From positions 62,001-126,000 of the IMG/VR virus record IMGVR_UViG_3300021958_000021: 64,000 nt of DNA; one strand, given 5' to 3'. A program made the position numbers and the translations under genes. The stretch is from an uncultured virus (IMG/VR IMGVR_UViG_3300021958_000021). Taxonomy: Duplodnaviria > Heunggongvirae > Uroviricota > Caudoviricetes. Shown piece after piece: positions 3,830 to 52,310 of this stretch. Every line of letters starts with the position of its first letter. The stretch's first letter is position 1. The notes under the pieces were generated by a model. It was given only the letters and a program-made list of their open reading frames with translations, did not search any database and had not been told where the DNA came from.

Positions 3830-3839
3830 TAATTACACC

Positions 3840-4490: not shown

Positions 4491-4492
4491 AT

Positions 4493-5152: not shown

Positions 5153-5178
5153 CTTTTATTCCTCTCTTCCACACAATA

Positions 5179-5847: not shown

Positions 5848-5848
5848 T

Positions 5849-6142
5849 TTATTCACCTATAAATACATCTAATCCAATAAATTCTCCTTCTATTTTCTTT
5901 TCGTAGTTCCAAAAAAGTTCTCCGTTAAATTCATCTTCATCGGCATATCTCATTTTCCAACCTAAATTGTTCAGTTTTCTATTTAATTCATCCCAATTCA
6001 CATCTAATGGAAACAGTAAATCAATATCTTTTGGATTATCCTTTTTTCCGACAGAACCAACAATTTTTGGTTTAAATTCCTTTAAATCATCAAGCAAAGA
6101 ATTAGCAATAGAAACATAGTTTTTGAGTATGCTAAACCACAT
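5849..6142 (-). CDS. Minimal Pol-beta-like nucleotidyltransferase with WxxILK tag
   Basis: IVGSVG...KDIDLL and a distal LDVF; N-terminus MWFSILK. Confidence 0.6.
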   Translation of the reverse strand: MWFSILKNYVSIANSLLDDLKEFKPKIVGSVGKKDNPKDIDLLFPLDVNWDELNRKLNNLGWKMRYADEDEFNGELFWNYEKKIEGEFIGLDVFIGE

Positions 6143-6156
6143 ATCAATGCCCCCAC

Positions 6157-6792
6157 CTAAAAATATTTATTTAACATCATTTCTAAATGTTTTATAGCAT
6201 CTTCCATCTCATATTCTGTAATTCCTGCACTTCTTCTAAGATTTTCTTCATCTTTACTCGTTAAAGAATTATTTTTCATTCTTTGTAATAATTGTTTTCC
6301 TAATTCTGCTACTTTTGAATCTGGTAAATATTTATATTTGGGGGTATCAGGCATTCTTCTATCTATTTTGGAAGGGAATTCTTTCCCTCTTGGGGTAATG
6401 TTTCTTCTAGTGTCAATAAACATCCAATAAATCTTATCTTCCGTATCTTTATAATTAGCGTAGCCTTCATCCATTCGCATTGAAAAATCTTGGTCTGTTT
6501 TAAGAGCCTGTTTAATTGTGGGTTTTGCTTCATTTTTATATGAGGATTTTTGTTCAGGAACGACCTGTGAACCGAAGAAAGCATAACATAAGGCTTCATC
6601 TAATCTAGGAGTCCAATGTAAAGTGCTATCTTCATACCTTCTATTTTCTGGTAAATTTGAAGTTTTTCCTTGTGCGCCTTGAAATAATTTATTAAATTTA
6701 AATCTCATGTCATACGGTTCGCTGTCAGTTTCTCCGGGATTTACAATTTCTCCATGTATAACATATGGCTTTTTTAAAATATCCCACCACAT
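6157..6792 (-). CDS. WxxILK-tagged protein, possible ADP-ribosyltransferase-like fold; paralog of 30746..31231
   Basis: MWWDILKK; LFQG...HWTP..EALCYAFFGS...KPTIKQA shared with 30746..31231. Confidence 0.5.
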   Translation of the reverse strand: MWWDILKKPYVIHGEIVNPGETDSEPYDMRFKFNKLFQGAQGKTSNLPENRRYEDSTLHWTPRLDEALCYAFFGSQVVPEQKSSYKNEAKPTIKQALKTDQDFSMRMDEGYANYKDTEDKIYWMFIDTRRNITPRGKEFPSKIDRRMPDTPKYKYLPDSKVAELGKQLLQRMKNNSLTSKDEENLRRSAGITEYEMEDAIKHLEMMLNKYF

Positions 6793-6793
6793 A

Positions 6794-7012
6794 TTAATGC
6801 CCCCACCCGTTTAACAAAGTGTCAAACAAGAAACCCATGATGTTGATGTCAAAAACACCAAGGATGTTTCCAATAAGGAAACCCGAAAGACAAGCGCAAC
6901 TGCCCCAAAACCATGCTCGCATTTTCAAAAAGAAAATATCAGCAGAATGCGCTCTTTGTTGATTATAAGCATAATCCGAATCGGAAAAGCCCATCAAATC
7001 TCCAAAGACCAC
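6794..7012 (-). CDS. Small membrane protein
   Basis: Hydrophobic stretch AWFWGSCACLSGFLIGNILGVF. Confidence 0.65.
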   Translation of the reverse strand: MVFGDLMGFSDSDYAYNQQRAHSADIFFLKMRAWFWGSCACLSGFLIGNILGVFDINIMGFLFDTLLNGWGH

Positions 7013-7024
7013 TCAACCACCGCC

Positions 7025-7408
7025 TTATTGAAGGGCGGCTAAGAACTCATTTCCAACGCTATTTTCTTCTTCCTGTTGAATAGGTTGATAAAAAGTAGTA
7101 TTGTATTGCTTTGCGCTTTCACGCATCTTTTGTCTTTGTTGTTCGTCCCTAGCCTTTCTTTCCCAGTATGCCGCAATTTTACGGTCTAAGAGCCAAAGTT
7201 CAATTTTGTCGTTAAGGGATAGGTCAAAAATAGCCTTCATAACCATAATCGCACCAATCGTCCCTAAGCCAAATAGAACTGAATGCGCTAATGGGCCATA
7301 TGGGAAACTCATGCCGAAAGCGGCATATGCCCAAACATTTGTTCCGCTTAATGCACCAACAAATAAAATGGTCATAATTAGACGAGTATCTTGACTTAAT
7401 GCAACCAT
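7025..7408 (-). CDS. Two-TM membrane protein with charged C-terminal tail (holin-like topology)
   Basis: Two hydrophobic segments followed by a charged helical tail. Confidence 0.6.
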   Translation of the reverse strand: MVALSQDTRLIMTILFVGALSGTNVWAYAAFGMSFPYGPLAHSVLFGLGTIGAIMVMKAIFDLSLNDKIELWLLDRKIAAYWERKARDEQQRQKMRESAKQYNTTFYQPIQQEEENSVGNEFLAALQ

Positions 7409-7432
7409 TTCACTTAGCCTCCTTATCTCACC

Positions 7433-7723
7433 TTAAGCAAAGTGAATGAACACATTTGCATTACCAGAGGTTTCCTCATAATAAAGTCCTTCAGAACAAA
7501 GAACGCTGTGCATATCAAATTCAATATTTTGAACAGCCGCACCATCCAGACTTAAACGGGCTAATTCTTTACCCGTATTATCGGTTCCATCAAATATCTT
7601 AACTTGACAAGCAGACCCGCTATCATTATTAACATGAATAGAAACTAATTTGCATTTACCAGTAAAAATTTGTCCACTAGCCGTCAAAAGGCCACTACTT
7701 CTACAACTCGTCATTTTAAACAA
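7433..7723 (-). CDS. Putative virion structural protein (beta-rich)
   Basis: 96 aa ORF in the capsid operon. Confidence 0.5.
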   Translation of the reverse strand: MFKMTSCRSSGLLTASGQIFTGKCKLVSIHVNNDSGSACQVKIFDGTDNTGKELARLSLDGAAVQNIEFDMHSVLCSEGLYYEETSGNANVFIHFA

Positions 7724-7774
7724 CTCCGTTCAACCTGTCTATGAGGTATCACCCTCTTAACCCTATCGCTAGGA

Positions 7775-8095
7775 TTATTCGGTCAAAGACGATTTTTTGC
7801 TCTTAGAAGAGGTTTTTTTCGTCTTTGGTTTAGCGGGGAGAAGATATTCACACAATTTATCATGTGTGTCAAAATCTCTTCCTAATGCTCTTCCTAAGCG
7901 AGTTAAGTGGGAAGGCTCTAATTGCTTTAATTCATTTCTTTCACTTTCTGCAAAAGAAATATCAAGACAATTATCACCTAAATATCGCAAAGCGTCTTGA
8001 GTAGGAATATCTAAAGTAATGTTCCTACTTAAGACCTCTCCATTAACCAATAGGGTTTTTGACCGAGAGCCTTGAGAAAGTTTAATTGTAGCCAA
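7775..8095 (-). CDS. Hypothetical protein with basic tail
   Basis: 106 aa ORF with GAGGTGG RBS, downstream of the capsid genes. Confidence 0.55.
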   Translation of the reverse strand: MATIKLSQGSRSKTLLVNGEVLSRNITLDIPTQDALRYLGDNCLDISFAESERNELKQLEPSHLTRLGRALGRDFDTHDKLCEYLLPAKPKTKKTSSKSKKSSLTE

Positions 8096-8105
8096 TTAAA
8101 CCACC

Positions 8106-8441
8106 TCAAAGGAGGCCAAAGGCTCTAACTCTTACTGTTCCAGCATTTCCTGCTACTTCTGCGCCAGTAGCCAAAATATACGCTGTTACGGTAAAGGAGG
8201 AATTAGAGGTATAAGCCCCATTTGCTGCACAAAGAAGTTTAAATCCATTCAATGCACCTTCACTTCCAGTAATAACAACTGAAGAAATAGATGACAAACC
8301 CAAAGAAGAAGCAGTAATCACTTCTCCAGTAGGAGTAAGGGAAGTAATATCCAATGCTGCATCAACCATATATTCGTCGCCATTGGCTCTTGGCTTGGTA
8401 AAACCTTTATGGTCAGCCAGTAAAGTTACGGTATGCGTCAT
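8106..8441 (-). CDS. Putative capsid decoration/cement protein
   Basis: Small Ser/Thr/Gly-rich ORF directly after the major capsid gene; GAGGTGA RBS. Confidence 0.5.
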   Translation of the reverse strand: MTHTVTLLADHKGFTKPRANGDEYMVDAALDITSLTPTGEVITASSLGLSSISSVVITGSEGALNGFKLLCAANGAYTSNSSFTVTAYILATGAEVAGNAGTVRVRAFGLL

Positions 8442-8450
8442 TTAATCACC

Positions 8451-9803
8451 TCAAAGGAGATTGGTAATCTTTCCTTGGCCCTTGAAGTAAGAACAACCAG
8501 TTTCAGCCATTGTGCGGTAAAGAGCCTTGTTTCCAAGAGAACCGACACCGAATGGGTTTCCGTTGCTGATACCATCTTCAAAGTATTGTGTAGGCTTCAT
8601 CACAGATAGCCACAAATGGTCAGTATCAAGGAAAAGCATATCACTAATCAAAGAACTGTTTGTTCCAGTAGAAGGCATAGCCGCAACAGGAATCAAAGGA
8701 ATGTCGTAGTAAGTAGAAACACGGAAACCGACTTCTGCACCCTTAACACCACGAACACCGTTCACAGTAGGAACGATTTCCTTTCTATCCATGAAACGCT
8801 CTTGAGCCTGAAGCAAGTCAGAAAGCGTTTGAAGAGTATCATATCCCGTAAGAATGACCTTTGGCGAACCACCAGCAACACGGAGTCTGCGAACCATGTC
8901 GTTAATCACAGTAAGCGTCAATTGTCGTGCTTCTGCGGAAAGGTAGCCATCACCGAAAGAAATCTCGGAGTCTAAATACTCATTACCAGCCGCACTTCGG
9001 AGTTTTCCGTAAAGAGTGTCAATTTGTTGGTCAGTAGCCGTTCCAACAAGGTTTCCTCCAGCATTGTCAGCCAATTCATCAATTTCAGCAGAACTGCTCA
9101 CAATCTTGTAAAGAGAAGTGTATGCTCTATCAATGGCGTTTGCCGTAGCATATGCCGTAGTCGGAGAATAGTTCTCCAAAGGCATAACAAGCATTTGATT
9201 CTGCACTTCAGCGTGATGCTTACCCATATCCTCTCTCAATTGCGCTCTAATATCACCGATACCATCGTCAATTTGAGCCATTTCCATAGCCAATTCGCTG
9301 AAAGCAAATTGATGAGCGATGATTTTTGGACTGGTAAAGAGCGTATCATACTCAGGAGCAATTGAAATCAAACCATCCGTATTTGAATCAAGGCTGGCGT
9401 TTTCGGGAACACCACCAATTCGGTCAGCACGAAGGGCATCAGCACCATAAAGTGAATCAGCGAGAGCCGTGTTAGAAGCGGCAGAAATGTCCAAAAAGTT
9501 TCCAGCACCACCAGCAGGTCGCTTTCTGAGGATTCTCCAACCACTTGACGAATAAGGACGCTTTGCGATAACAGACAATGCGTTGCATTCTCGGTTTAGC
9601 ATAGACCAGACCTTTTGGCCGTAAATCTTGTTGTAAAGGTTTGCATTAATACCCGTTGGGTCGCTTAACGAACCATCGTGAGCGACATGAATACCGCTAA
9701 CGGTTCCTGCCGCTTTAAGCAATTGGTTGCTAATATGACCAGTTGCGCCCGTTCCGTAAGTTTGTGCTTCTAAATCTGCAATAGTGTTAATATATCCTAC
9801 CAT
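8451..9803 (-). CDS. Major capsid protein (HK97 fold)
   Basis: 450 aa directly downstream of the protease-scaffold; GAGGTGA RBS; composition typical of archaeal tailed-virus capsids. Confidence 0.8.
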   Translation of the reverse strand: MVGYINTIADLEAQTYGTGATGHISNQLLKAAGTVSGIHVAHDGSLSDPTGINANLYNKIYGQKVWSMLNRECNALSVIAKRPYSSSGWRILRKRPAGGAGNFLDISAASNTALADSLYGADALRADRIGGVPENASLDSNTDGLISIAPEYDTLFTSPKIIAHQFAFSELAMEMAQIDDGIGDIRAQLREDMGKHHAEVQNQMLVMPLENYSPTTAYATANAIDRAYTSLYKIVSSSAEIDELADNAGGNLVGTATDQQIDTLYGKLRSAAGNEYLDSEISFGDGYLSAEARQLTLTVINDMVRRLRVAGGSPKVILTGYDTLQTLSDLLQAQERFMDRKEIVPTVNGVRGVKGAEVGFRVSTYYDIPLIPVAAMPSTGTNSSLISDMLFLDTDHLWLSVMKPTQYFEDGISNGNPFGVGSLGNKALYRTMAETGCSYFKGQGKITNLL

Positions 9804-11028: not shown

Positions 11029-14010
11029 CTAATCCTCAACAGGAAGGGGCAATTTGTTATACCTATCCTCATAAATATTCCACTTTCCTTCATCCCCGTC
11101 TTTATCAGCAGGTTTTTGTTTGAATCCTGTCCATGCTAACCACATAGACTGTCCATCAACTTCAATGACTCTATAATGCATTTTAGTTTCAAATTTATTG
11201 CCTTCTAAGAAATATTCATGGTAGCCGTCCCTTTGAATACCTAGACGAATTTTACCAGAATCTATAAGTTTTCCCTTAGAAACAGTCTTTGCTACTTCTG
11301 CTGGATATTTACCAGCCGCACCGAATAAGTCAAACATCTCTTCTTCATTTTCAATGTTAATTGTCCAGAACATATTTTCTGTTTTAAGTTTAATTGCTAG
11401 AGTTAAATTATCATCTTCTCTAGCATAAATTTTAAATTCTCCTTCTCTTAATTCAGGAGGTGTTTTATATTCTCCTTCTACTGCTTTAATATCCTCTTTT
11501 AGCATAGCATATTTATCACTAAAACCAGAGTCTCCGTGAACGCATTTTTGATATTCTTCTAAGGCTCGTTTTAGTTCACCTATATCTACCCCATCTACGG
11601 TAGTATCAAAAAATTCTTCAACTACTTCCACTAATATTTCACATTTTAAAGTATCTACTGCATTATTCATGGCTTGCACTTCTGCCTCATAATTGTTTTC
11701 CCAATTATCCTCTTCAAATTCTTCTGGTCTTGACAAAACATCTTCATATAGTTTTTCATAACTGCCATAATATCTAATATGAGCGTCTAGGGTTTGTTTT
11801 CTGTTTTGTTTAATGGCTTCCTTTAAATTGCGACAACATTCATCATCTTCGTTTGTATCAATTTGAACTGCATCATCTTCTTCTGCTTCTTCAATGATTT
11901 CTTTAGTGCGAACCAATTCAGCCATTTTAGTTAAACTTTTTTTAATTTCCTCTTCCTGCATAATTTTATCATCATCAGCAGCAATTTTATTATCTTTTTC
12001 ACTAATACCGTCTCTAAGGACAGCCCATTGTTTTAATTTCTTTTCACTAGAATCAAGAACTTCTTCATATAAGTCCTTATGTTTTTCTTTCAAAAAATTA
12101 TGTAATTGTCTCGGAGTCTGTTCTCCATTTAATTTTAGGTGCTGAAACATAGCAACAGTTAATTCACTTTGTTTAGTTTTCATAATGTCCAATGCCTGTT
12201 GCTTCCACATATCTAAATCCATAGTAGCGTTCTTAGACATTAAATTATTTTCTTCATATCCATAAATAGTAAATCCATCTAAATCATATTTTATGATTAC
12301 ATTTGCTTCTCCGTGAATATGGTCTGTAATTTTAATACCTTTCTTAAATGCTTCAACATTATAGTTTAAAGATTTTTTGGTGTCTTGAGACAATAATTCC
12401 AAAGTGACTAATTTATCGGGATGTTCAACTTCAGGAACTTCAATTACTTTAGCAGAAAATAAACTATACCCTTCTCCTTTCTTTTTAACTTCATCCACTT
12501 TAACTCGGATAATATCTCCAATATCAACAGAAATTTTAGTATTTAAAGCCCTACCTACATTTAAGTATTGTCTTTTATTAACATCAACTGTTCCTTCCAT
12601 TTCTTCTGTGATTGGCCCAACACCAACACTATAAGAATAAAGATTACTCTTGGTCTTTTTCTTGTCAAGAACAATAACATCTAAATCAACAAACTTTTTC
12701 CATTTAATCCACTTAGGATTTTTCTTTGTTCCGATATAATAAGTTGAAGTAGAGTCTTTAATAACTACTCCCTCAGAAGCAGGGTTTTCCATAATTTCTT
12801 TTGAATACTTTTCAATATCCTTTAAGTTATCTGCTTGTCTTGTATCTTTCTTTGATGGGAAAGCAATCACTTCATTTGTTTTTGAAGAATAATTGTTGAA
12901 TAATATAGTCATTCTATTTTCTAATTCCTCATCAGCGAGAGTTTGAGATTCATGTCGTATAATATCAAAGACATGACAACGCAGTTTTGCATCTTTGTAT
13001 TTTCCTTTGAAAACATGAGCGATAGTATCTGCTCTATGCAAGGGTTCACCTTCATCATCAAATAGAACTAATTCACCATCTAAAATACAATCACCATATT
13101 CTTTCTTTTTAAGTTCCTCAACTTGTTCTTTACATTTCTTAGTAATGTCTTTTTCATTATAAGAATATATTGTAACTTTGTCATCAATTTTATGTAATTG
13201 AACTCTCATACCATCATATTTTTCTTGAACATACCAATTTCCACTAAAGCCTTTTAATTCATTAATGTCATCTATTTCAAATATTCTATACATGGGTTTA
13301 TTGGGAACAATAAATTGTGAAATTGATTTTTTCTCATCACTTGGAACAGACTTAGAAAGACCTTCAATATCAATTAATTCTTCCCATTCTTTTTGTTCTT
13401 TCTTAGAAAAGAAAATTAGTTCTAACATATCCATAGCAGCCTTTACTTTAGATTCAACTTTCTTTGAGTCTTTTCCATCCCCGTAATGCTCAATAATATA
13501 GAGGGCTACATCGTCTGATTCTAGGTCAAGTCCGATAAGACCCTCCGTAATTGTGTCGGGGGTCATGCCTTTAACCTCATAAATGTCATCAGATAGTGCT
13601 TTATTGTTGTCTCTTATTGCATAATGCACAAACTTAACCATAGATTCGGGATTATCTAACAATTCTTCAAGAACACCATCCTTGAACATGGAGGCGAAGG
13701 GGTCGTCCACAATGGACGAAGAATAACGAAGAAGTTTAATATTTTCAAACAGTTCTTTAGCCTGTCTTGAAGTAGGGTCTTTAGTGTCCTTATCTTCTAA
13801 ATTTTTTTCATCAATAAAGTTCCGCATTTCTTTTCCTGCGGCATCTGTTTCATTATATGATTCAATGATAGTATCAACTGCTTTACGCCAACGACCACTA
13901 TACTCATTAGGGTCTTGCTTTGCAGATAAATAGGCTACTCTTGTCTTTTCAAATAGACGAAGAATTTCTTGAGAAGGTTGTTTATCCTTCTCAATAGAAG
14001 CCAACTTCAT
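11029..14010 (-). CDS. Multidomain ATP-dependent DNA ligase-like protein in the head module
   Basis: QEKYDGMR, ILDGEL, VFDII, EGVVIK and KWIKWKK followed by an OB domain; C-terminus resembles a degenerate LigD phosphoesterase module (LIDSGK...EYFLEG). Confidence 0.8.
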   Translation of the reverse strand: MKLASIEKDKQPSQEILRLFEKTRVAYLSAKQDPNEYSGRWRKAVDTIIESYNETDAAGKEMRNFIDEKNLEDKDTKDPTSRQAKELFENIKLLRYSSSIVDDPFASMFKDGVLEELLDNPESMVKFVHYAIRDNNKALSDDIYEVKGMTPDTITEGLIGLDLESDDVALYIIEHYGDGKDSKKVESKVKAAMDMLELIFFSKKEQKEWEELIDIEGLSKSVPSDEKKSISQFIVPNKPMYRIFEIDDINELKGFSGNWYVQEKYDGMRVQLHKIDDKVTIYSYNEKDITKKCKEQVEELKKKEYGDCILDGELVLFDDEGEPLHRADTIAHVFKGKYKDAKLRCHVFDIIRHESQTLADEELENRMTILFNNYSSKTNEVIAFPSKKDTRQADNLKDIEKYSKEIMENPASEGVVIKDSTSTYYIGTKKNPKWIKWKKFVDLDVIVLDKKKTKSNLYSYSVGVGPITEEMEGTVDVNKRQYLNVGRALNTKISVDIGDIIRVKVDEVKKKGEGYSLFSAKVIEVPEVEHPDKLVTLELLSQDTKKSLNYNVEAFKKGIKITDHIHGEANVIIKYDLDGFTIYGYEENNLMSKNATMDLDMWKQQALDIMKTKQSELTVAMFQHLKLNGEQTPRQLHNFLKEKHKDLYEEVLDSSEKKLKQWAVLRDGISEKDNKIAADDDKIMQEEEIKKSLTKMAELVRTKEIIEEAEEDDAVQIDTNEDDECCRNLKEAIKQNRKQTLDAHIRYYGSYEKLYEDVLSRPEEFEEDNWENNYEAEVQAMNNAVDTLKCEILVEVVEEFFDTTVDGVDIGELKRALEEYQKCVHGDSGFSDKYAMLKEDIKAVEGEYKTPPELREGEFKIYAREDDNLTLAIKLKTENMFWTINIENEEEMFDLFGAAGKYPAEVAKTVSKGKLIDSGKIRLGIQRDGYHEYFLEGNKFETKMHYRVIEVDGQSMWLAWTGFKQKPADKDGDEGKWNIYEDRYNKLPLPVED

Positions 14011-14015
14011 ACTAA

Positions 14016-14561
14016 TCATCTATTTTTTTGGTATTCGGAGTCTAAAGTTTCTCCTGAATATTCCGAATCATAAGCAATCGTTTGTTCAGGAATTTGAGAT
14101 AATTCGCTTTCAAGTTCCATTAATTTCTTATTAACTTCAACAATTCTATTCATCATCTCATTCTGTTCATCGGGTTTAGCATCCTTGATTTGTTTAGATA
14201 ACCCAGTAAGCATAGCAGATAAACCATCAATTTGTCCAATCAATCTCATTCTTTGTTCATGGTCTAACATAGGATTAGTTTCATAATCTTCAGGTAAAAT
14301 GTTCTTTAGAATCTTAACCATTTTAGTTACTTCACCAGCATAAGCATGAAGAGTAGTCGGGCCATCATTTGATTCTGCCTTGTAGTTGTAATTTTCAGCC
14401 TTTGGTCGCTTCAATTTAACTGCTTCTGAATCATCATCTTCTGGACTACGGTTGTTGTCCATTAAGGATTGATAAAGCATTTCTTTTGCTTCTCTTGCTT
14501 TTTGAATCATAATACTGATTTTTCTTTCTTCTCTAGTAACTCTTTGAGGCATTTTAATCAC
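14016..14561 (-). CDS. Hypothetical coiled-coil protein
   Basis: 181 aa ORF in the operon. Confidence 0.6.
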   Translation of the reverse strand: MIKMPQRVTREERKISIMIQKAREAKEMLYQSLMDNNRSPEDDDSEAVKLKRPKAENYNYKAESNDGPTTLHAYAGEVTKMVKILKNILPEDYETNPMLDHEQRMRLIGQIDGLSAMLTGLSKQIKDAKPDEQNEMMNRIVEVNKKLMELESELSQIPEQTIAYDSEYSGETLDSEYQKNR

Positions 14562-36287: not shown

Positions 36288-36503
36288 TTACTCACCAAAG
36301 TCTTGTAGAATTTCAAAAGCCGCTTCTAAGTGTTTGACCACTTCTCTAATATCGTCAGCAGAATCTTTTGGGAATCCCGCCATAAACTCAGGAGAAAACA
36401 ACATTCCTATCTTTTCTCCCAAATCCTTTTTAATTCTACGAAGAGTTTGAACTCTTCTTTCTACATCTTCTTTTTCGTCTTGTTTTATAATATCTTCCCA
36501 CAT
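36288..36503 (-). CDS. Tagged small helical protein
   Basis: Probable start MWEDIIKQD. Confidence 0.6.
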   Translation of the reverse strand: MWEDIIKQDEKEDVERRVQTLRRIKKDLGEKIGMLFSPEFMAGFPKDSADDIREVVKHLEAAFEILQDFGE

Positions 36504-36521
36504 AACAATCACTTTTTCAGT

Positions 36522-36785
36522 TCAAGAAAAGTTCAATATTTCTACTAATTTTTCGTATTCGCTATCTATTCTTTCAACGGCTTTTTCAGCACCTTTAACT
36601 TTCTCAACTGCGAACTTAGCCATGTCTAAAATATAATCGGCTTTTAAATCTGCTTCATCTTCTTCTTCGCTGTCTCTCAAAACCCCTTCCATTTCATGAA
36701 TCCTATTTTTCAATCGTATCAGCAATTTTTCTAAAACAGGAAGTAGGTCTTCTTCGTCTTGTTTGATAATATTTTCCCAATTCAT
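36522..36785 (-). CDS. Tagged small helical protein
   Basis: Probable start MNWENIIKQD. Confidence 0.6.
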   Translation of the reverse strand: MNWENIIKQDEEDLLPVLEKLLIRLKNRIHEMEGVLRDSEEEDEADLKADYILDMAKFAVEKVKGAEKAVERIDSEYEKLVEILNFS

Positions 36786-36786
36786 C

Positions 36787-36999
36787 TTAATCATCTCTAT
36801 CAGATTTTTTTCCTGCTTCTTGCTTATGTTCTCTTAAAGCGGCCACATATTTGTCAAGAGCATTTTTAACTTCTGTATATTCTGCCCCACCTACATAAAA
36901 TCGTGTCATTTCCGTTTTTACCCGCAAAGCCCTTGCTATCATATCATCTACATTTTGCCTATAATTTTTGTTGTATTTGACAATATTTTCCCAATTCAT
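36787..36999 (-). CDS. Tagged small helical protein
   Basis: Probable start MNWENIVKY; AGGTGA RBS; 26-bp repeat 36768-36793 = 36982-37007. Confidence 0.6.
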   Translation of the reverse strand: MNWENIVKYNKNYRQNVDDMIARALRVKTEMTRFYVGGAEYTEVKNALDKYVAALREHKQEAGKKSDRDD

Positions 37000-37120
37000 C
37001 TTAATCACCTTAATTTCTCAAAATTTGGCTCGGAATTTTTTTACGACTAGCGTTTTTTTTTATGAATTTTTTTATGTATTTCCAGAATAAAAAATATTTT
37101 TTTAATTAATTGTTTATTGT

Positions 37121-37462
37121 TTATTTTTTTTCTTTTTCCAATTCATCTAATCTTATTTGTATTGTTTTCTTTTTATGATAAAATGGAATAAGACTTTCTT
37201 TCAATTCTCGTAGTTTTCTTGCAATTTGTTTTAATTTAACCTTATTCTCAGGTAAAGTTTGAGTATTCTTTTTAGATGTATTTGATTTGATGTCTGCCAA
37301 AATATCATTAATAGATTCATTAATAGCAGTAATCTGAGGTAAGACTTCATCCAAACTATTCAATGGATTGCCCCCGTTATACGGAACGAGCCTCACGGTA
37401 TAAAAATGCCGATGCGAGGGGCAATATGTGGGTTCAAAAGGGGCAAAATAACCCATTTTCAA
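37121..37462 (-). CDS. Possible hypothetical protein
   Basis: 113 aa ORF in the AT-rich strand-switch region; no clear RBS. Confidence 0.3.
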   Translation of the reverse strand: MKMGYFAPFEPTYCPSHRHFYTVRLVPYNGGNPLNSLDEVLPQITAINESINDILADIKSNTSKKNTQTLPENKVKLKQIARKLRELKESLIPFYHKKKTIQIRLDELEKEKK

Positions 37463-37705
37463 TCAAAGAATATTAATGAATTAACGATTAATTCAGAAAA
37501 AAATCGGAAACAAAGCCATATGGTTGTAGATACTTCTATTATAACTATATATATCTATTTAAAACTATTTATTTTATTTATGTCATTTCAATCTATTTAT
37601 CCTACCATATGGTTTTCTTTGCTACAACCCGCCTTTTGAATGCAAATTGCGCTTAGTGTCGGCTATGGTGGCCTCAACCGAAAAAACACAAAAGAAGGTG
37701 AAAAA

Positions 37706-38203
37706 ATGGATATGAACAATCAAAAATTCAACGAAAGAACTTCCGACATTCTAATTTGGATGCAGGAAAACGATATTGGCGCACTAGAGCCAATGATTCA
37801 AGGTCAAATTAATTATGGCCGTGGATTGACTGACGAAAAGCAAATCGGTAAGATTTGGAACGCTATTCGTGAAATGTTGGGGACTCTTCCCGAATCCCCA
37901 ATTAAGCGAGGTAAGCAGAGCAGCCTCCCAACCGAGGTTTCTGTTCTTGTTGATTCTTTGGCTAATGATGCGCTTTCTGCACATTTGACGCTAATCAACA
38001 CCGGCGACATGAATCTTTTGCTTTGCCGATTGGGCAAGAAAGCAAACGGTTTGTGGGATGATGAAGAATACGGTGATGCTATGGCTAACCGTGTGAAACA
38101 ATCGCTCATTAAGCGTTATAATCTTGGAATTTGGGACGGAACCCGTGAAGGTCTGTCTTCTCAAGACTTTAGCGTAATTGTGGAGGACTCCGAAGAGGAG
38201 TAA
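37706..38203 (+). CDS. Paralog family member 1 (WxAIRE...SPIKRG...GxWDG)
   Basis: AGGTGA RBS then MDMNNQK; WNAIREMLGTLPESPIKRG; GIWDGT. Confidence 0.8.
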   Translation: MDMNNQKFNERTSDILIWMQENDIGALEPMIQGQINYGRGLTDEKQIGKIWNAIREMLGTLPESPIKRGKQSSLPTEVSVLVDSLANDALSAHLTLINTGDMNLLLCRLGKKANGLWDDEEYGDAMANRVKQSLIKRYNLGIWDGTREGLSSQDFSVIVEDSEEE

Positions 38204-38241
38204 CCTCCACTTTTGTAAATAAATCGGGAAAGGCCACCATA

Positions 38242-38540
38242 TGCCCCCTTTTCCTATTCTCGCTGGATATACCGGTTAAGCCAGCATAGAACCAAAGCCC
38301 TGAACACTCACAAAGTAGTCAAATGTGGGCGAAGTATTGTAATACCCAATAGACCGACGGTGAGGGGTTTCTGACGCTTCCGATATTTTGATGAAATGCA
38401 AACGATAAGTAGGGGTGGCGGTTTTCTTCTCCTTTTGGGGGAAAGCGCACAAAAGAACGATAACCCACATGGCGGCATTTTTATGCCCTGTGTTGAAATT
38501 GGGAGTTATTTAGTAATTGTGCGCTTTCTCCCAGTCTCCG
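38242..38540 (+). ncRNA. Candidate structured RNA in the intergenic region
   Basis: GGGGAAAGCGCACAA (~38438-38452) pairs with TTGTGCGCTTTCTCC (~38517-38531); further GCTGG/CCAGC and GGCAT/ATGCC stems; no credible ORF. Confidence 0.45.
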
Positions 38541-38629
38541 AGGTTGTTTTTAGTGAAACTAAGCAAAGTGAGACACAACCATATGGTTTTCTTTTGTAAA
38601 CTCGGTTTATTATGACATTATTCCCAAAA

Positions 38630-38884
38630 TAACATGAAGAAACATCTTTCTTTCAAACCCATAGGTGAAATAAACCCAAACATCATTGAAAAACACCAAG
38701 CCCTCTTTATACGCTCGGTGAACAATCAAATAAGATATGCTAGCATTGTCACAAAAAACGAATGAGGCTCCGCCCGTTTTGATGTCGCCTGTTCGGGCAT
38801 CATGTATTTTTCCCGAAAAAATGGGATTGTGCAGGGAATGATAGAAAGAGGGGAAAACAGGCTCTTTCCCCTCTTTCGCCCTGC
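38630..38884 (+). ncRNA. Candidate ORF-less ncRNA unit of the array
   Basis: Same palindrome and TTTATTAT upstream as the coding units; ends in a 13-bp hairpin (38844-38877); no ORF of 60 aa or more. Confidence 0.45.
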
Positions 38885-39014
38885 GAGGTAGTTTTAGTTA
38901 ATTTACGAAAGATTTACTACCATATGGTTTGCTTTGCAAACTTGGTTTATTATCCCAAATACTCCCAAACAATGCCGTAAGGTGTGTAATCAAAAAACAA
39001 AGGAGATGAAAAAC

Positions 39015-39530
39015 ATGGACGAAAAAACAGCACATGAACGGGCTAACGAGATTCTCGCATGGCTCAAGGTAAATGGAGAAACCGCAGGGGCTTTGGCTCC
39101 TATGGTTGAGGGCCAATGTAATTATTTGCTTGCCCTTGAAGACGACAAAAACCGAGGAAAGGTTTGGGCGGCTATTCGTGAGATGCTCGGCACTTTGGAG
39201 GAATCCCCAATTAAGCGAGGGACTCGCTCAAACCTCACGGCAGAACAAGACGCAGTTATCGCAAATATCGGCAACCGCATCATGCAAGCCTTTGCTCAAA
39301 TTGGAGAATGGACTTTGATTCAACAGGTTTTCCCCGAATCCACCCGAAAGGGTCAATATGGGGATGTGGAGGCATACGCCGACCACATGCGCCGAAAGGC
39401 CGAAACCAACATGAAAACGGCAATTCGTGAAGAACGCTTTACGGGTCTATTTGATGGTGATTCGCAAAATATCACCATCACGCCAGCAGAACCCCCACAA
39501 AACGCTGAAAGCGGGGAGGCTCAAGAGTAA
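39015..39530 (+). CDS. Paralog family member 2
   Basis: AGGAGATGAAAAACATG start; WAAIREMLGTLEESPIKRG. Confidence 0.8.
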   Translation: MDEKTAHERANEILAWLKVNGETAGALAPMVEGQCNYLLALEDDKNRGKVWAAIREMLGTLEESPIKRGTRSNLTAEQDAVIANIGNRIMQAFAQIGEWTLIQQVFPESTRKGQYGDVEAYADHMRRKAETNMKTAIREERFTGLFDGDSQNITITPAEPPQNAESGEAQE

Positions 39531-39788
39531 TCTTGAGTCCTGCGTTGAGATTTACACACACCAAAAAGGCGCAAACGGCTCCCTCCCCTCAAAATCGCAC
39601 TAATACCCATCTAATGCGGGTCACTTAGTTTAAGCGAGAGGGGGGGGATGCCCCCTTTGGGGTTATTTTCTACGAAAACTTGCAAAGTAAGATGCAACCA
39701 TATGGTTTGCTTTGCAAAACCAACTTATGTATTTTTATGCAAATATTTATTGCATCAACCGCACAAACCGCAAAAGGAGATGAAAAAC

Positions 39789-40325
39789 ATGAAAATGAAA
39801 CATACACGAATAGAACAAATCTATGGAGGCATCAATAACAAAGCATTCGGGGATAATACCCCAATGGTTGAAATGTTGCTTGAGCAGGCGCTTTACGAAG
39901 CAAACGGAGATTATCAAAGCCGAAAGGCGAAACCGTTCTGGGATGCCGTTATTGCACTTGTTAAAGCCTTGAAACCCGAAATGTTTTCACCAAACCGCAT
40001 ACCTCGCCAAATTATGAGCGTAATTGACGACATTTATTCAATTGTTCTCGAAAAGGAAGGAATGCACCTTTACAGGATGAAAGAAGAATTGGGATTCTTG
40101 CCTTTCTTGCCTCGTGGCCGCAGTTGGCTCTATGACCGAGACTGTGAAGGATTGAACGCTCAAGCCCATGTAGACCATATCGCTTTAACACGGGCAAACC
40201 ACACCCGAAACATGCTAATCAAGGCATTTAGGTCGGGTGCTTGGGATGGTTCCCACGATACGATAAATACGGTGTTTTCTACCGGAATTATGCGTGGGTG
40301 CTATGGGCCGGAGGATTGCCGTTAA
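39789..40325 (+). CDS. Paralog family member 3
   Basis: Same AGGAGATGAAAAACATG start; FWDAV..., LGFLPF, GAWDGS. Confidence 0.75.
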   Translation: MKMKHTRIEQIYGGINNKAFGDNTPMVEMLLEQALYEANGDYQSRKAKPFWDAVIALVKALKPEMFSPNRIPRQIMSVIDDIYSIVLEKEGMHLYRMKEELGFLPFLPRGRSWLYDRDCEGLNAQAHVDHIALTRANHTRNMLIKAFRSGAWDGSHDTINTVFSTGIMRGCYGPEDCR

Positions 40326-40354
40326 GCGGTTTAACGGTGGTTGATGCAACAACG

Positions 40355-40387
40355 GGGGGAAAGGGGTCTTTCGACCCCTTTCTCTCC
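40355..40387 (+). terminator. Strong hairpin closing the unit
   Basis: GGGGGAAAGGGGTC-TTTC-GACCCCTTTCTCTCC. Confidence 0.55.
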
Positions 40388-40522
40388 ACTTGTGGTTTTC
40401 AATCATTATTCACAAAGAAAGTCTCAAACCATATGGTTTGCTTTGGAAACCCGACTCTTTAACCAAAAAATGCCTGTTTAATGTCCAAAGGGCAACAAAC
40501 CTAAACAAAGGAGAGAAAAACC

Positions 40523-41041
40523 ATGAGACTGAAAAGAGAACATCAAATCATTCGGCTTGAAAACGCCATCGCAAAAGGGATGGTAACAGACGACCATGTG
40601 CTAAATGCCTTAGAATTGACTTTAGGCCTTTATCATAGTGCGTCGGAAAACAATGCAAGGCAAAGCGTGTATTGGACGGCTATTCGCCACATCGTGAAAA
40701 TGCACGATTATGGGGTTGATGCCTACATGAAGGGAAGAATCCCCCATACCGTTAAACTCAAAATCCATGAAATTGCCCGTGTTGCCCGTGAAGAAGTGTA
40801 TGAGGCATACCTCAACATTCACGACAAACTCGGCTTTTTGCCCATAAAGGTAGATTCTGAGGAATTGCACCGAGCCGATTCAATCGCCCATTCTGCATCC
40901 ATGAAGGTCATGCGCTCAATTGAGCGAAGGCTGACAAACGCCTATAAAGCGGGCGGTTGGGACGGAAGCGTAGAAAGTGCGCCAAATCACTTTGGACAGC
41001 GTTCTTTAGACGCACCAAATTTCAACGGAGGTTTTGAATAG
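40523..41041 (+). CDS. Paralog family member 4
   Basis: YWTAIRHIVK, LGFLPI, GGWDGS; AGGAG RBS. Confidence 0.8.
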   Translation: MRLKREHQIIRLENAIAKGMVTDDHVLNALELTLGLYHSASENNARQSVYWTAIRHIVKMHDYGVDAYMKGRIPHTVKLKIHEIARVAREEVYEAYLNIHDKLGFLPIKVDSEELHRADSIAHSASMKVMRSIERRLTNAYKAGGWDGSVESAPNHFGQRSLDAPNFNGGFE

Positions 41042-41199
41042 GTTTGACCTCCCCTTTGGACATGCACTCCGATTTTGGCTAAATCGGAGCATCACGCATT
41101 AGCCCCAAAGCCCGAATTAGCCCGTAAAACGGCTTTTTCGGGTGGCGGGGTTCTTAATATATATTTTTAACGAAAGTAGCAACGAACCATATGGTATGG

Positions 41200-41850
41200 T
41201 GAATTAATGCCTTCAAGCGCAGGTCTATGTAATACAGTATCTCTTTCTGCAACATTATTTGGGTCTAATTAAACCTACACAGAATTAACAGGGGTTTGAA
41301 TGTAGTAAATTCAATTGGACATATACCCATATGAATAATAATACTATATTATATTCAAGTCGCCAGAAGTTTGTCATGTTTTTAACATGGGTGTGACAAA
41401 TATCAGAGAAGATATGAGAGGGTTATGACCCATAAGCATATTACTATTATATATTTAACATTATTATCATTATTAACATACCATACCATACCATACCATA
41501 CCATATATCACCATCTTATATCCCTCTCATTTCTTAGGGGTTATACAAAATAATACCTTTATGAAAATGAAAAACATGTTAAACATGACAACAATGTTAA
41601 ACATATCATAGTGCTTAGGTTATGTATCACAACCTACCCCAAAACAAATTATCACGGATGTTAAACTTGCGGCTCTTTATCAAGGGTGACGGTTTCGTTT
41701 CTTTTCACTTTTCTATTTTGAAGATAAAAATGAAAATGATGTAAAAATAAAACGAGGATTGCAAAAATAACATGCCGATTATGACAAGGTTATGAAGCAC
41801 AAGTTATGCCTAAAATAGAAAGTTAGAGACATTTGAGTTATTGTTGCGCC
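41200..41850. other. AT-rich non-coding region with short iterated motifs (candidate origin or terminus)
   Basis: (CATAC)x5 at 41477-41501; recurrent GGTTAT and AACATG/TGTTAAAC; no ORF. Confidence 0.5.
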
Positions 41851-41901
41851 TTATATACTAATAACAGGTAGGAAGTTTGCCTACGGGCAGGATATGATAA
41901 C

Positions 41902-42369
41902 ATGGATAATGTGAAATGGGAAAGTCTCGTTATTGAGATTACCGAATACCTTGAAGCCGATGACAGTTTGGATGCCGCACTTCGCCAAGTGGTTGAATTG
42001 CACCTCCAAGTTGGACAAGAAAACGAGAATGAGCGAGAAGCCGCTAGTAACGCACTAAAGGCTCTTTTGCGAGGCCGTGACGGAACTCCGTTCCGCCGTG
42101 GACAAAAATCTGCCGTTCCTGCGGCGGTAAGAGTCGCAATTGACCGTATTTGTGGCGTTGTTGAAGAAGCCGCCCTTGGTTTCTTTAACCACGACCCAAT
42201 TATGAGTCAAATTCTCACACAACACGCAAAATCCGGTGGCGGTCTTTTTGAGAACGATGCCGCATATGCCGCTTCTGTTGTGAAGAGAATGCGAAACTCG
42301 CTTTCGTCCCAATATAAGGACGGTTCGTGGGACGGTAGCGTTAATTCTCTACTCGGCAACGAAGAGTGA
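41902..42369 (+). CDS. Paralog family member 5
   Basis: TPFRRGQKSAVP and GSWDGS; upstream TTATATA box at ~41851. Confidence 0.75.
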   Translation: MDNVKWESLVIEITEYLEADDSLDAALRQVVELHLQVGQENENEREAASNALKALLRGRDGTPFRRGQKSAVPAAVRVAIDRICGVVEEAALGFFNHDPIMSQILTQHAKSGGGLFENDAAYAASVVKRMRNSLSSQYKDGSWDGSVNSLLGNEE

Positions 42370-42417: not shown

Positions 42418-42462
42418 CCCCCTGCGGCTTTCTCTTCGGAGATTGCCGTAGGGGGTTTTTTC
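42418..42462 (+). terminator. Hairpin plus T-tract terminator
   Basis: CCCCCTGCGGC...TTCG...GCCGTAGGGGG followed by TTTTTT. Confidence 0.6.
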
Positions 42463-50281: not shown

Positions 50282-51490
50282 ATGATAGACTATGATTTTG
50301 ATTTTAATATTAAAAAACCCGATGACTCACAAACCAGTTGGACAGTCAATTGTTCAGTTGTTGTTGAAAATCCTGATAATTTAGAAAATACTCTGTTTAG
50401 AAAAATCTTTCCTAGGCATAGTGTTTATCATATTACAGAACGAAAGTCGTCAAAAATAACCTCTTATCCAAACAGACAAGCAAAAGACCCTGTTCATGGC
50501 GGAATTGTTCAACAAATTAAAACTATGATTCAAGTCCCACGAAAACGAAGAAGGCAATATGTTGAAAGAATGGCTGAATATAGCGGCATCCTTAAAATTG
50601 AAGGTCTGCCTATTCTCCTTGCTAAAAATGATATTCGCTATTCTATCAATGGGAGAGCAGAGTCTCTAGAAAGAATTTCTGATATTCTAGCAAGATTGAT
50701 GTTCAAAGCGATTAATACGAAAGATACGAATAAACTAATGGCTTCTCTTTACTCTTTTCTAGATATGCCTGAAAATGTTAGATATGCCCTTGAAAACAAC
50801 ACTCCCTATACTTTTTATCAAGACTTTGAAAAGTATGATGTTAGGCTAAAAACCCAACAAATTGGAGATGATGAATATGCGCTTGAAGTAAGTGATGGAA
50901 TTTGGGGAACAATGTCTTCTAAGGATTTGGTGGTGTTTGTTAATACTTATCTTCACGGCAAAAAAAGAGGGTCTTGGTATCAGATTTCGCCCAAAAATCT
51001 TTACCTGCGAACAGTAGGAAAAGAACCCTCTCAATCTGATATTAAAGTCATGCGAGAGTTTTTGAAACAAAACCGAACTTCGGATATTGTTGAAAAAAGG
51101 GCTAGAGATTTGGTTAGAGAATTAGAATCCCAATATTCCGATAGGATTACTGTCCGTTGGAATGAAAAAGACATGCCGGAAAAAATCTTCGTTAGAGGAA
51201 AAGGTTACGATTGGTTGTTAGAAGCACGAAACTACAAACGGTCATATCAAGATGTATCTACATTTGTCTATCAGCCTCAAGACGGTGAAGGAAATTGGGT
51301 TGGCCCAATTTGTATTGACAATATGAATAATGATTCTTCAATTGGCGACCAATTCGCCGCTAGAGTATTAGCATTTATTAATGATAATGTCACAGTTAAA
51401 TTGGTAAGCACACTTAACCATAGAATAAAAACAGAACCAAATGAATATAGAGTTGATAAAAATGAAGTGTCTAGAATGTGGAATGAATGA
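50282..51490 (+). CDS. Hypothetical protein with Cys-containing C-terminal domain (E2 candidate)
   Basis: 402 aa; GPICID...GDQFAARVLA; lies between the Ubl and E1 genes. Confidence 0.55.
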   Translation: MIDYDFDFNIKKPDDSQTSWTVNCSVVVENPDNLENTLFRKIFPRHSVYHITERKSSKITSYPNRQAKDPVHGGIVQQIKTMIQVPRKRRRQYVERMAEYSGILKIEGLPILLAKNDIRYSINGRAESLERISDILARLMFKAINTKDTNKLMASLYSFLDMPENVRYALENNTPYTFYQDFEKYDVRLKTQQIGDDEYALEVSDGIWGTMSSKDLVVFVNTYLHGKKRGSWYQISPKNLYLRTVGKEPSQSDIKVMREFLKQNRTSDIVEKRARDLVRELESQYSDRITVRWNEKDMPEKIFVRGKGYDWLLEARNYKRSYQDVSTFVYQPQDGEGNWVGPICIDNMNNDSSIGDQFAARVLAFINDNVTVKLVSTLNHRIKTEPNEYRVDKNEVSRMWNE

Positions 51491-52310
51491 ATTTAATTTT
51501 AATGAAGGCCTAGGAGAAACAGAATGCGTCAATTGCGGTTTAGTGGTTCAAAGTGAACCATTTGAACAGAGCGTTAGAATGGTGAATGATGGCGTTTCTG
51601 TTCATTCAGCAGACAGAAATAGGCTAGGGTCTGTTATTACGGGCAAGGGGTCTTATAAATACAATAAGCGGGGAATGAATACTGATATTCCTACGCATAT
51701 TACGAGAGGACTTTCTCTTTGTAAAATGGTTCTTGCTTCTATTCAAGAAAATAGCAATCTTAGAGATAGAGTAGAAGAAGTATATCTTGAATTATATGCA
51801 AAGGGTATTTTTGGAACACACAGTCTTGAAAATAGAGCAGTTTCAGTTACTTATTATGTATTGCTTGAAAACAAGACTCCAACCCCTCTAAAAGATATTG
51901 CTAAAGAATTTGATTGTAAAATTAAATCTACTGGGAAATTAGTTAGAAAAATACTGTCTTTTTATAGGCATAAGAAACCTGACTTAATTCCAGACTCTAA
52001 TTTTTTGTTGTCACAAACGGTAGCAAAAATCACAAACGATGGTTTTTTCTTAACTCTGTGTCAAGAAACTATGCAAGCCTTAGAACCAATTTTAGAAAAA
52101 GCCGACTACAATAAAACTCCGAGTTATTTTGCCTGTATTGCTTGGATTACCAAAAACATTAATCTGTATTCCACAATTACGATTTCTAAGATTTCTAAAA
52201 CAACTGGAATACATCGGGCAACAATATACAAAAACACAAAAAATATTATATCATTGTTAGGATATACAGAAGTTAAAGAAATGAAAGGAAGAAAAATTAA
52301 GGAGGAATAA
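51462..52310 (+). CDS. tfb: Transcription initiation factor B (TFIIB/TFB-like)
   Basis: N-terminal Zn ribbon CLECG...GETECVNCGLV, LGSVI linker, two cyclin-like repeats. Confidence 0.85.
   Translation: MKCLECGMNEFNFNEGLGETECVNCGLVVQSEPFEQSVRMVNDGVSVHSADRNRLGSVITGKGSYKYNKRGMNTDIPTHITRGLSLCKMVLASIQENSNLRDRVEEVYLELYAKGIFGTHSLENRAVSVTYYVLLENKTPTPLKDIAKEFDCKIKSTGKLVRKILSFYRHKKPDLIPDSNFLLSQTVAKITNDGFFLTLCQETMQALEPILEKADYNKTPSYFACIAWITKNINLYSTITISKISKTTGIHRATIYKNTKNIISLLGYTEVKEMKGRKIKEE

Follow-up and report, generated by a model that had tools for sequence, protein, structure and literature searches.

What holds together a series of small related genes, each set behind the same short palindrome, at the point where the coding strands of a viral genome diverge? 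The locus belongs to an uncultured tailed virus (IMG/VR record IMGVR_UViG_3300021958_000021), and the window analyzed here is a stretch of 64,000 nucleotides that represents bases 62001-126000 of this 184,733-bp record. A preliminary description of the window had reported five divergent paralogs (p1 to p5), with open reading frames (ORFs) starting at 37706, 39015, 39789, 40523 and 41902, in separate transcription-unit-like blocks behind a palindrome, and had read them as an immediate-early or first-injected module of host-takeover or anti-defense proteins under a shared operator. Its observation is confirmed here and its interpretation is partly supported. Our preferred answer, to which we give a probability of roughly 0.6, is that the island is a hyperplastic accessory-gene region of a group-B-type magrovirus, built of mobile promoter cassettes resembling the promoter-early stem-loops (PeSLs) of T4-type phages and probably holding early genes. 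The cassettes have a common anatomy that is conserved across the clade of related viruses, and the palindrome at their head doubles as the recombination junction at which they are exchanged, a second role that the preliminary description had not foreseen.

The record itself, although listed as complete, is composite. Self-comparison resolved two genomes, each ~92-94 kb long, that are collinear, follow each other head to tail and share 65-90% DNA identity; they meet near record position 93.6-93.9 kb (window ~31.6-31.9 kb). Record bases 1-435 are similar to 93923-94357 (77%), and bases 93460-93623 to the final 163 bases of the record (96%). The window from 1 to ~31.9 kb is therefore the right part of a different virus, called virus A, from the one that fills the remaining window and bears the island under study (virus B), and since the two genomes are related, one record offers two orthologous islands. 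Virus A was also found as an independent contig (L022, 99.994% identity across 16,465 bp), and related contigs are circularly permuted.

Cassettes at the palindrome and their exchange

The cassettes are headed by an 8-base palindromic core, CCATATGG, which was counted in the window in the form ACCATATGGT. Six exact copies of the latter are present, all within 37.6-41.2 kb, a count matched in 0 of 100 shuffles. The motif scan placed them at 37604, 38578, 38919, 39697, 40428 and 41186, with GCCATATGGT at 37515 (the feature starts given below are 1 higher). When one mismatch is allowed the window holds nine, against 1.21 expected, and none of the 100 shuffles attained nine; the repeat is real. 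All five units named in the preliminary description, four with an ORF and one supposed to lack it, carry ACCATATGGTTT(G/T)CTTT. Across the record CCATATGG occurs 20 times against ~2 expected from base composition, and 17 of these cores fall inside the two orthologous islands, 10 in that of virus A (record 5107-9021) and 7 in that of virus B (window 37516-41187), with 3 elsewhere. Both islands lie between the same conserved flanks and show no DNA-level alignment save for the p5 gene. As had been described, the region is GC-rich (0.42-0.46 at 38-41 kb, 0.33-0.36 in the flanks) and sits at the switch of coding strand (~37.46-37.7 kb), where the GC skew also changes sign.

With p5 alone as bait, 23 related viral loci were collected, giving 25 loci together with viruses A and B. 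The 4-6 kb that precede the p5 ortholog contain 5-13 palindromes in 21 of the 23; in the remaining two, the DNA available there amounts to only 2.9 kb and 0.4 kb. The full symmetric site CAAAG-N4-7-CCATATGG-N4-7-CTTTG was found in at least 175 stretches of viral contigs, and among the matches listed it is typically clustered, on contigs of up to ~92-103 kb. Among the matches listed in full-text literature, CCATATGG appeared in cloning primers or unrelated papers, and an Rfam scan of 36.5-43 kb returned only the tRNA above threshold. Three magrovirus papers (PMC5434244, PMC10160649, PMC11706807) use none of the terms promoter, palindrome, paralog, hypervariable region or variable region in their article text.

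Read towards the gene, the consensus runs (C/G)AAAG, 4-10 nt (mostly 4-6), CCATATGG, a stem arm, a (G)CTTTG loop and a complementary arm ending in ACC, and beyond the stem a (T/C)TA(A/T)AT box, read as (A)ACC(T/C)TA(A/T)AT, with ~20-25 nt more to the start region. Stems of at least five contiguous pairs around the CTTTG loop were present on 71 of 240 sides, against 22 of 240 when the 3' flank was shuffled. The arms have 46 distinct sequences, so it is the structure of the stem that is conserved and not its sequence (the arms covary). The GC-rich hairpins said to close the units were also recovered, with 15 terminator-like sites against 6.2 ± 2.9 in shuffles. The ACCYTAWAT box looks like a TFB recognition element (BRE) followed by a TATA box, and its geometry suggests a promoter. 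Two other readings of such boxes were tried and dropped. AACC(T/A)TATA, taken as a general genome motif, has 20 copies in the record, mostly intragenic, and its combination with TGCTYC occurs solely in the island of virus A; Bacteroidota-type promoters (TTTG / TAnnTTTG) were ruled out by spacing on inspection.

Two classes of cassette can be distinguished. Apart from p5, 42 of the 47 family genes have a core 69-124 nt upstream of the ATG, whichever strand they use, together with GGAGG or GAGGTG ahead of the ATG and a further core 54-190 nt past the stop codon. The five exceptions to the core geometry are in L024 and L025 (no upstream core), L028 (two genes) and L032. Genes of p5 type lack a core within 715 nt in all 24 cases with enough upstream DNA. 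The second class consists of small-ORF cassettes, in which 45 of 72 unique examples start 53-61 nt from the core, where ~15 would be expected from a flat distribution over the 42-nt search range. No tetramer resembling a Shine-Dalgarno (SD) sequence precedes 56 of 73 small-ORF starts, and box centre and ATG are separated by 25 nt in the median (24-28 nt in 27 of 51). Archaeal leaderless promoters have a TATA box centred near -26, and ~25 nt from TATA to ATG is typical of archaea. In many relatives the family genes additionally carry a conserved TGCTTC ~24 nt past the box, which begins a 5' hairpin, and a second leader hairpin pairs the SD sequence GGAGG with an upstream CCTTT (L009:5882-6005, L018, L020, L021 and others); these leader hairpins hint at translational control.

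Cutting the 25 loci at their palindromes yielded 166 cassettes in 80 sequence clusters. Clusters 0 and 1 stand in swapped order in virus A and L018 as compared to L020, L026 and L030, clusters 4, 6, 7, 11 and 27 were seen in both orientations, and many clusters are present in some loci and absent from others. Specifically, the virus A segments 5306-6016, 6328-6767, 6967-7691 and 8067-8698 recur in L020 in a different order, and each of the four BLAST high-scoring segment pairs (HSPs) terminates -12 to +18 nt from a core. Over all HSP ends inside islands (n=512; HSPs <150 nt and ends at region borders removed, and L015, L017 and L022 excluded as short or duplicate), 41% fell within 20 nt of a core, against 8% of random positions. 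The junction was further resolved with 343 anchored pairs, in which the cassettes correspond on one side of a palindrome and are unrelated on the opposite side. Ungapped identity measured from the core is 0.27-0.30 on the unrelated side up to -15, 0.42-0.45 at -14 to -3, 0.88-0.97 in the core, and 0.57 dropping to 0.35 on the shared side. Cassettes have thus changed place and orientation, and have been acquired or lost, among the relatives, and homology breaks off no more than ~15 nt from the palindrome. This independent shuffling, together with the constant palindrome-to-ATG distances, the TATA-like box and the closing hairpins, bears out the division into separate transcription-unit-like blocks. 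Copies of CCATATGG within family genes (L019:5681 and L028:3610), where the conserved Pro-His-Gly motif reads Pro-Tyr-Gly, were rejected as borders, being a coincidental PYG coding variant that split a gene when the cassettes were cut.

Such sharp borders could also belong to an integron-like array, in which the palindrome and the covarying hairpin would be a structure-specific, attC-like site, recognized as folded or cruciform DNA by a putative viral or host enzyme, with promoter activity confined to the TATA-like box downstream. Homology between cassettes does end within ~15 nt of the 8-bp core, inversion and permutation are expected for a palindromic crossover, the stem is kept in structure through 46 arms, the shared element is short for homologous recombination, and the viral genome has genes for structure-specific nucleases (ERCC4/XPF-HhH and PD-(D/E)XK types). 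Like an integron, the island is an array of single-gene cassettes whose order and content differ among relatives, with imperfect inverted-repeat sites that have conserved ends and variable stems conserved in structure. However, Pfam detected no integrase, transposase or HUH enzyme in the scanned ORFs of virus B (three border-spanning ORFs were unscanned, and the many orphans could conceal one). Furthermore, attC follows its gene, whereas the site here stands at a fixed distance upstream, beside the promoter-like box of the gene. Integron cassettes are promoterless and are read from a common Pc, whereas each cassette here has its own TATA-like box, on either strand and in both orientations. Finally, recombination of PeSL type yields the same pattern without a dedicated enzyme. 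We therefore consider it unlikely, if worth keeping in mind, that archaeal viruses have here a dedicated structure-specific system of cassette exchange, that is, an integron-like capture lacking a recognizable integrase and placing a promoter in every cassette.

Virus identity, host and promoter model

The genome encodes an HK97-type head module, a UvrD-like helicase, a chaperonin, two ATP-dependent ligases, an RFC-like clamp loader, a split family-B DNA polymerase, an ERCC4-HhH nuclease, tRNA-Leu and tRNA-Arg. Group B magroviruses, in the passages that characterize them, have tRNA-Leu and tRNA-Arg, a split polymerase and terminally redundant genomes of ~100 kb (Philosof et al., 2017). Both tRNAs, the split polymerase, a chaperonin in the replicative block, a major capsid protein (MCP) akin to that of haloarchaeal tailed viruses and a genome of about that size were all found here, and the virus is a group-B-type magrovirus, hence a tailed virus of archaea. 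In virus A, the structural arm encodes a 996-aa protein (window 11029-14019, minus strand) with an ATP-dependent DNA ligase domain (Pfam, 8.7e-32), which agrees with the ligase noted within the structural module of magroviruses in the part of that paper devoted to it (Philosof et al., 2017). DNA and protein searches of a named phage collection, with the island and this 996-aa protein as queries, gave no match.

Outside the island, at 51441-52310 on the plus strand, lies a gene for a 289-aa protein that matches TFIIB by profile (E-value = 4.9e-11, positions 16-258) and the Pyrococcus TFB core (~1.4e-7); Pfam and NCBIfam match its ribbon only, below their cut-offs. The predicted model comprises an N-terminal Zn ribbon, a linker and two five-helix (cyclin-like) repeats. 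Fold comparison gave 29 matches at E<=1e-3, every one of them TFIIB, TFB or Brf; the protein is a full TFB/TFIIB homolog. It is a candidate reader of viral promoters and might redirect the host RNA polymerase to them. The records matching the MCP are archaeal tailed viruses in 11 of 11 cases. Because all MCP relatives are archaeal viruses and the virus encodes a TFB homolog, the host is almost certainly archaeal, as had been suspected. Magroviruses are thought to infect marine group II archaea and, of all archaeal viruses in the surface ocean, belong to the most abundant; neither the viruses nor their hosts are in culture. The term TFB is absent from the 2017 magrovirus paper (Philosof et al., 2017).

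A bacterial host, for instance a marine flavobacterium, would turn the units into bacterial promoters or, in a variant, into N4-like hairpin promoters for a virus-encoded RNA polymerase. One observation in its favor is the related contig L036 (NZ_NZTP01000027.1), 14.7 kb long, which was binned in the metagenome-assembled genome (MAG) of the flavobacterium 'Altibacter sp.' and bears 7 palindromes, 3 family genes and the helicase. This contig nevertheless consists of viral genes only, collinear with virus A and with no cellular gene among them, and its placement in Altibacter is probably a binning error. A GC content of ~35%, closest TerL matches in Bacteroides phages and several ORFs of 700-2050 aa without annotation would also suit a bacterial host. 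Against these stand the MCP relatives and the full TFB homolog, sigma-70-like sites that are not enriched (14 against 13.9 expected), the leaderless geometry with 25 nt from TATA to ATG, and the strong use of SD sequences, which is atypical of Bacteroidota. We leave this explanation hardly any weight.

For an archaeal virus, the following model can be proposed. The box would be a promoter read by the RNA polymerase of the host together with TBP and a TFB, which could be that of the host or the viral homolog, and transcription would start ~25 nt past the box. In the small genes the ATG would coincide with this start, making them leaderless, while p-family genes would have a leader of ~35-60 nt with an SD sequence; a GC-rich hairpin with a T-rich tail closes the unit. 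The palindrome lies ~30-45 nt upstream of the box and not over it. Among archaeal regulators, this position fits an activator site and not a repressor that blocks TBP or TFB. Palindrome and stem may form a shared upstream control element for a putative dimeric factor, which, we propose, would co-regulate all units of the island, most probably as an early class. The same repeated element would serve as a recombination substrate between co-infecting relatives.

The protein family and the layout of the island

The five ORFs begin where they had been reported, and their paralogy holds. Searched with phmmer against 395 ORF translations of the window, p1 matches p2 (7e-25) and p5 (7e-13), p4 matches p5 (1.4e-5) and p3 matches p4 (1e-6), while no further ORF was matched by any of the five; the pairs link stepwise, and the family therefore holds by chain and not all-against-all. 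The alignment displays the motifs named in the preliminary description (W.AIR, SPIKRG/TPFRRG/RIP and G.WDG(S/T)). Eight members are encoded in the record, all inside the two islands, and besides p5 the loci have 1-4 copies, on either strand relative to p5, the four of virus B being the maximum. A profile of the eight members retrieved 229 representative clusters at E<=1e-3 (110 of them <=1e-10), all unnamed. Among 150 matches listed, all are <=229 aa except P0157 (276 aa) and P0172 (757 aa, in which nine short stretches look like repeats). In 90% clusters, 46 matches are unnamed marine metagenome proteins, some on contigs of ~92-93 kb.

The author of the preliminary description did not recognize the family, and neither did any library that we tried: Pfam, PHROGs, NCBIfam, PADLOC and PDB sequence profiles yielded nothing meaningful, and the ESM Atlas no usable match. 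The AlphaFold2 model of p1, built from an 84-sequence alignment, is all-alpha (pLDDT 92.5). Foldseek found no match for it in the PDB at E<=1e-3. The best that the VIA wide search returned were nsp7-like three-helix bundles over residues 4-62 (Z 8.5), which is under the noise level for helical bundles; in BFVD the model matched two unnamed viral proteins, probably family members. W143 (94%), G145 (96%), D144, P65 and G69 are the best-conserved positions, and 61 of the 84 members have an acidic C-terminal tail. The family is thus an orphan one, acidic, ~165 aa long and, according to the model, all-alpha without a known fold.

It had been suggested that the paralogs themselves perhaps bind the operator; the conserved p5 type, for example, could then regulate the variable copies. 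A palindrome does imply a dimeric binder, p5 is conserved, single-copy and adjacent to the island while itself lacking a palindrome, and 8 of the 84 members are basic (pI >8), p4 of the window among them. Yet 66 of 84 members have an isoelectric point (pI) under 6, the median being 4.91, and neither HTH, wHTH, RHH nor any other DNA-binding fold was matched in the Foldseek and VIA searches. Since the family is acidic and lacks a DNA-binding fold match, and the same palindrome also heads cassettes of other genes, we find this idea quite improbable. Most likely the paralogs bind host proteins, in takeover or anti-defense, and not DNA, because they are diversified acidic orphans in a shuffling island with a shared control element; this argument from context is the weakest of our inferences.

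On the left, the island of virus B is bordered by the first gene of the leftward arm (37121-37462, minus strand), which encodes a 113-aa orphan with no Pfam, NCBIfam or PADLOC family above a meaningful threshold. Upstream of it on its own strand are CCATATGG-CTTTG, 67 nt and the ATG. The left boundary palindrome, GCCATATGGT (37516-37523), has a flank, gaaacaaagCCATATGGttgtagat, that is also present at the left boundary copy of virus A. It faces the minus-strand gene, and the coding strand therefore switches between two divergent palindromes, in an AT-rich spacer (37524-37604, cassette GC 0.22). The leftward arm holds a second array of small paralogs, with three ORFs of 73-90 aa in virus B (window 36288-37008, minus strand) and four in virus A (record 3336-4538, minus strand), all starting M(I/W)KMNWE(N/D)I(I/V)K and without match in Pfam, NCBIfam or PADLOC.

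To the right, all units are on the plus strand. Palindrome 1 (37605-37621, followed by TTTT and CTTTG) heads the cassette of p1 (37706-38203; 165 aa, pI 4.6), whose ATG is 101 nt from the core start and is preceded by the SD sequence AGGTG. This cassette measures 982 nt, ~280 nt above the typical length of family cassettes, and its 376-nt tail (38204-38578), with a degenerate palindrome, CCACCATATGCC, near 38235-38246 at its start and no clear ORF, may be a decayed cassette. Palindrome 2 (38579-38613) is followed by TTTTCTTTTG and then by a TTTATTAT box at 38606-38613. Its unit had been called ORF-less, which does not stand, as a 43-aa ORF lies at 38634-38765, with the ATG 55 nt from the core start and ~24 nt past the centre of the TATA-like box. 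There is no SD sequence, which is leaderless geometry, and although Pfam gave no match the ORF is presumably protein-coding. Palindrome 3 (38920-38953), with the stem-loop GGTTTGC-TTT-GCAAACT (38926-38942) and again a TTTATTAT box (38946-38953), precedes p2 (39015-39530; 171 aa, pI 4.9; SD GGAG at 38992-38995), and a GC-rich hairpin with T-rich sequence (39637-39663) closes this cassette. Palindrome 4 (39698-39731; stem-loop TTTG-CTTTG-CAAA and a ACTTATGT box) heads p3 (39789-40325; 178 aa, pI 7.8), closed by a GC-rich hairpin of 15 pairs (40354-40387). Palindrome 5 (40429-40454; stem-loop GGTTT-gctttgg-AAACC) heads p4 (40523-41041; 172 aa, pI 8.0), after which the hairpin GCCCG-TAAAA-CGGC and TTTTT can be read directly in the sequence (41120-41138). 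The right boundary palindrome (41187-41194) has no CTTTG downstream.

Finally, p5 (41902-42369, plus strand; 155 aa) is the conserved single-copy member, with an ortholog in 23 of 23 related loci and in virus A. The claim that the palindrome heads the units holds for the four ORF units and the unit at 38579 and fails for p5, which has no palindrome within 700 nt, the nearest being 715 nt upstream. It has its own CCTTATATA box at 41849-41857, ~48 nt ahead of the ATG, and is followed by a hairpin and a T-run, again by direct reading (42418-42461). Between the last palindrome and p5 lies an ORF-less AT-rich region (41195-41901, ~710 nt, GC 0.32) with (ACCAT)x5, ATGTTAAACAT iterons in direct and inverted orientation and a 59-nt imperfect inverted repeat. 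All relatives have a non-coding stretch equivalent to it, in which the tandem repeats (3-8 nt) are specific to the lineage (GAGACAAC words in virus A), and the region is a candidate origin or regulatory hub.

This neighborhood invites the view that the palindromes are replication-origin iterons or a packaging signal, the genes beside them being incidental. They do lie between divergent arms where the GC skew flips sign, an AT-rich spacer of 80 nt separates the first two of them, and the iteron-bearing AT-rich region adjoins the island. Nevertheless, they extend over 4 kb, each gene has one at a fixed distance from its start codon, whichever strand it uses, and they travel with the cassettes; the skew switch is confounded with that of the coding strand, and the separate 41195-41901 region, with its lineage-specific repeats, is the better candidate for an origin. 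We judge this view very improbable.

Described systems and implications

Several points weigh against an island of mobile promoter cassettes in an archaeal virus. The box was found by regular expression at only 154 of 306 unique palindrome sides, and the boxes of p1 and p4 in the window match poorly. An ORF of at least 40 aa with SD and ATG is lacking on either side of 105 of the 171 palindromes, in a test that misses leaderless genes, and ORF starts at 40-82 nt show only a modest excess (73 of 306, compared to 41 of 264 in a control interval). The leader hairpins of virus B are weak (-2.3 to -7.9 kcal/mol). The compared cassettes are mutually related, so all such counts are of non-independent events. 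Promoters and transcription starts have been assigned from geometry, the covariation of the stem is unexplained by a simple protein-site model, and the element common to unrelated cassettes, ~30 bp with ~18 fixed positions, is short for ordinary homologous recombination. The host, too, has been deduced from sequence, with one related 14.7-kb contig of viral genes only sitting in a flavobacterial MAG, and the role of the proteins has been deduced from their context.

The closest parallel is provided by the PeSLs of T4-type phages, for which promoter, terminator and mini-circle activities were shown experimentally, according to the passages that treat them (Arbiol et al., 2010, PMC2839356; Comeau et al., 2014, PMC4122927). 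As portrayed there, PeSLs are repeated composite motifs of promoter and stem-loop, dense in hyperplastic regions and placed just upstream of orphan genes; they bound the indels and replacements between relatives, and the gene carries its own promoter and terminator. The island likewise has a composite motif, with putative promoter activity, upstream of orphan ORFs, a stem-loop, and breakpoints at the motifs in a hyperplastic region. In contrast to the sigma-70 early promoter consensus of PeSLs, for which sites are not enriched here, its core is BRE/TATA-like and its host archaeal. In addition, the invariant 8-bp palindrome upstream of the promoter has no PeSL counterpart in those passages, the conserved stretch is ~30 bp instead of ~100 bp, inversions are common, and the cassettes are known from sequence alone whereas the PeSL activities are experimental. 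Lacking the sigma-70 consensus and having archaeal host machinery, the island is therefore PeSL-like in its working and not a strict member of that class.

Archaeal viruses offer two further comparisons. In the haloarchaeal myovirus HGTV-1, most ORFs of one arm are preceded by a conserved motif, composed of a TATA-like box and an inverted repeat, which its authors likened to PeSLs and for which they proposed a role in regulation and shuffling, as far as the relevant passage goes (Sencilo et al., 2013, cited through PMC3950731). HGTV-1 is thus another archaeal tailed virus with a repeated upstream motif, the likeness being drawn from that description. It belongs, however, to another lineage with another host, and that passage describes neither breakpoints at an 8-bp core nor a paralogous cargo family. 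In crenarchaeal viruses, early genes, several of them anti-defense, share a regulatory sequence around the BRE/TATA, and inverted repeats at the BRE of SMV2 were proposed as a regulator site, in the passages concerned (Bhoobalan-Chitty et al., 2024, PMC11065993). This regulon is the printed counterpart of the idea in the preliminary description, with single-gene units, poorly conserved small proteins and one shared BRE/TATA-centred sequence per virus; here, too, several single-gene units of one genome share a regulatory sequence. The hosts of those viruses, however, are Sulfolobales, and early timing was measured there. The motif there is TTTAWATA with a purine-rich BRE, whereas in the island it is ACCYTAWAT (TTTATTAT in two units of the window) and the variable stem arm, often A-rich, takes the position of the BRE. 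Palindrome-bounded shuffling of cassettes is not described in those passages of PMC11065993.

What sets the island apart from these systems is that its upstream palindrome is invariant, that the stem covaries and that the breakpoints are very tight, and on account of these three features a site-specific, attC-like mechanism retains a small place beside the PeSL-like one. If it were true, magroviruses that co-infect one bloom would trade ready-to-express accessory genes with single-site precision.

On the reading that we prefer, the island would represent a first concrete cis-regulatory grammar for magroviruses, comprising units with and without a leader, an upstream element common to them and a viral TFB homolog that possibly reads them, as well as a precise and testable mechanism for the turnover of their accessory genes. 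It would also bring to light a large orphan protein family (229 clusters) whose context marks it as a likely anti-host tool, and the palindrome could be used as a handle to collect accessory cassettes from marine metagenomes. The idea behind PeSLs, that mobile promoter cassettes drive the plasticity of phage genomes, would thereby become testable in the archaeal domain.

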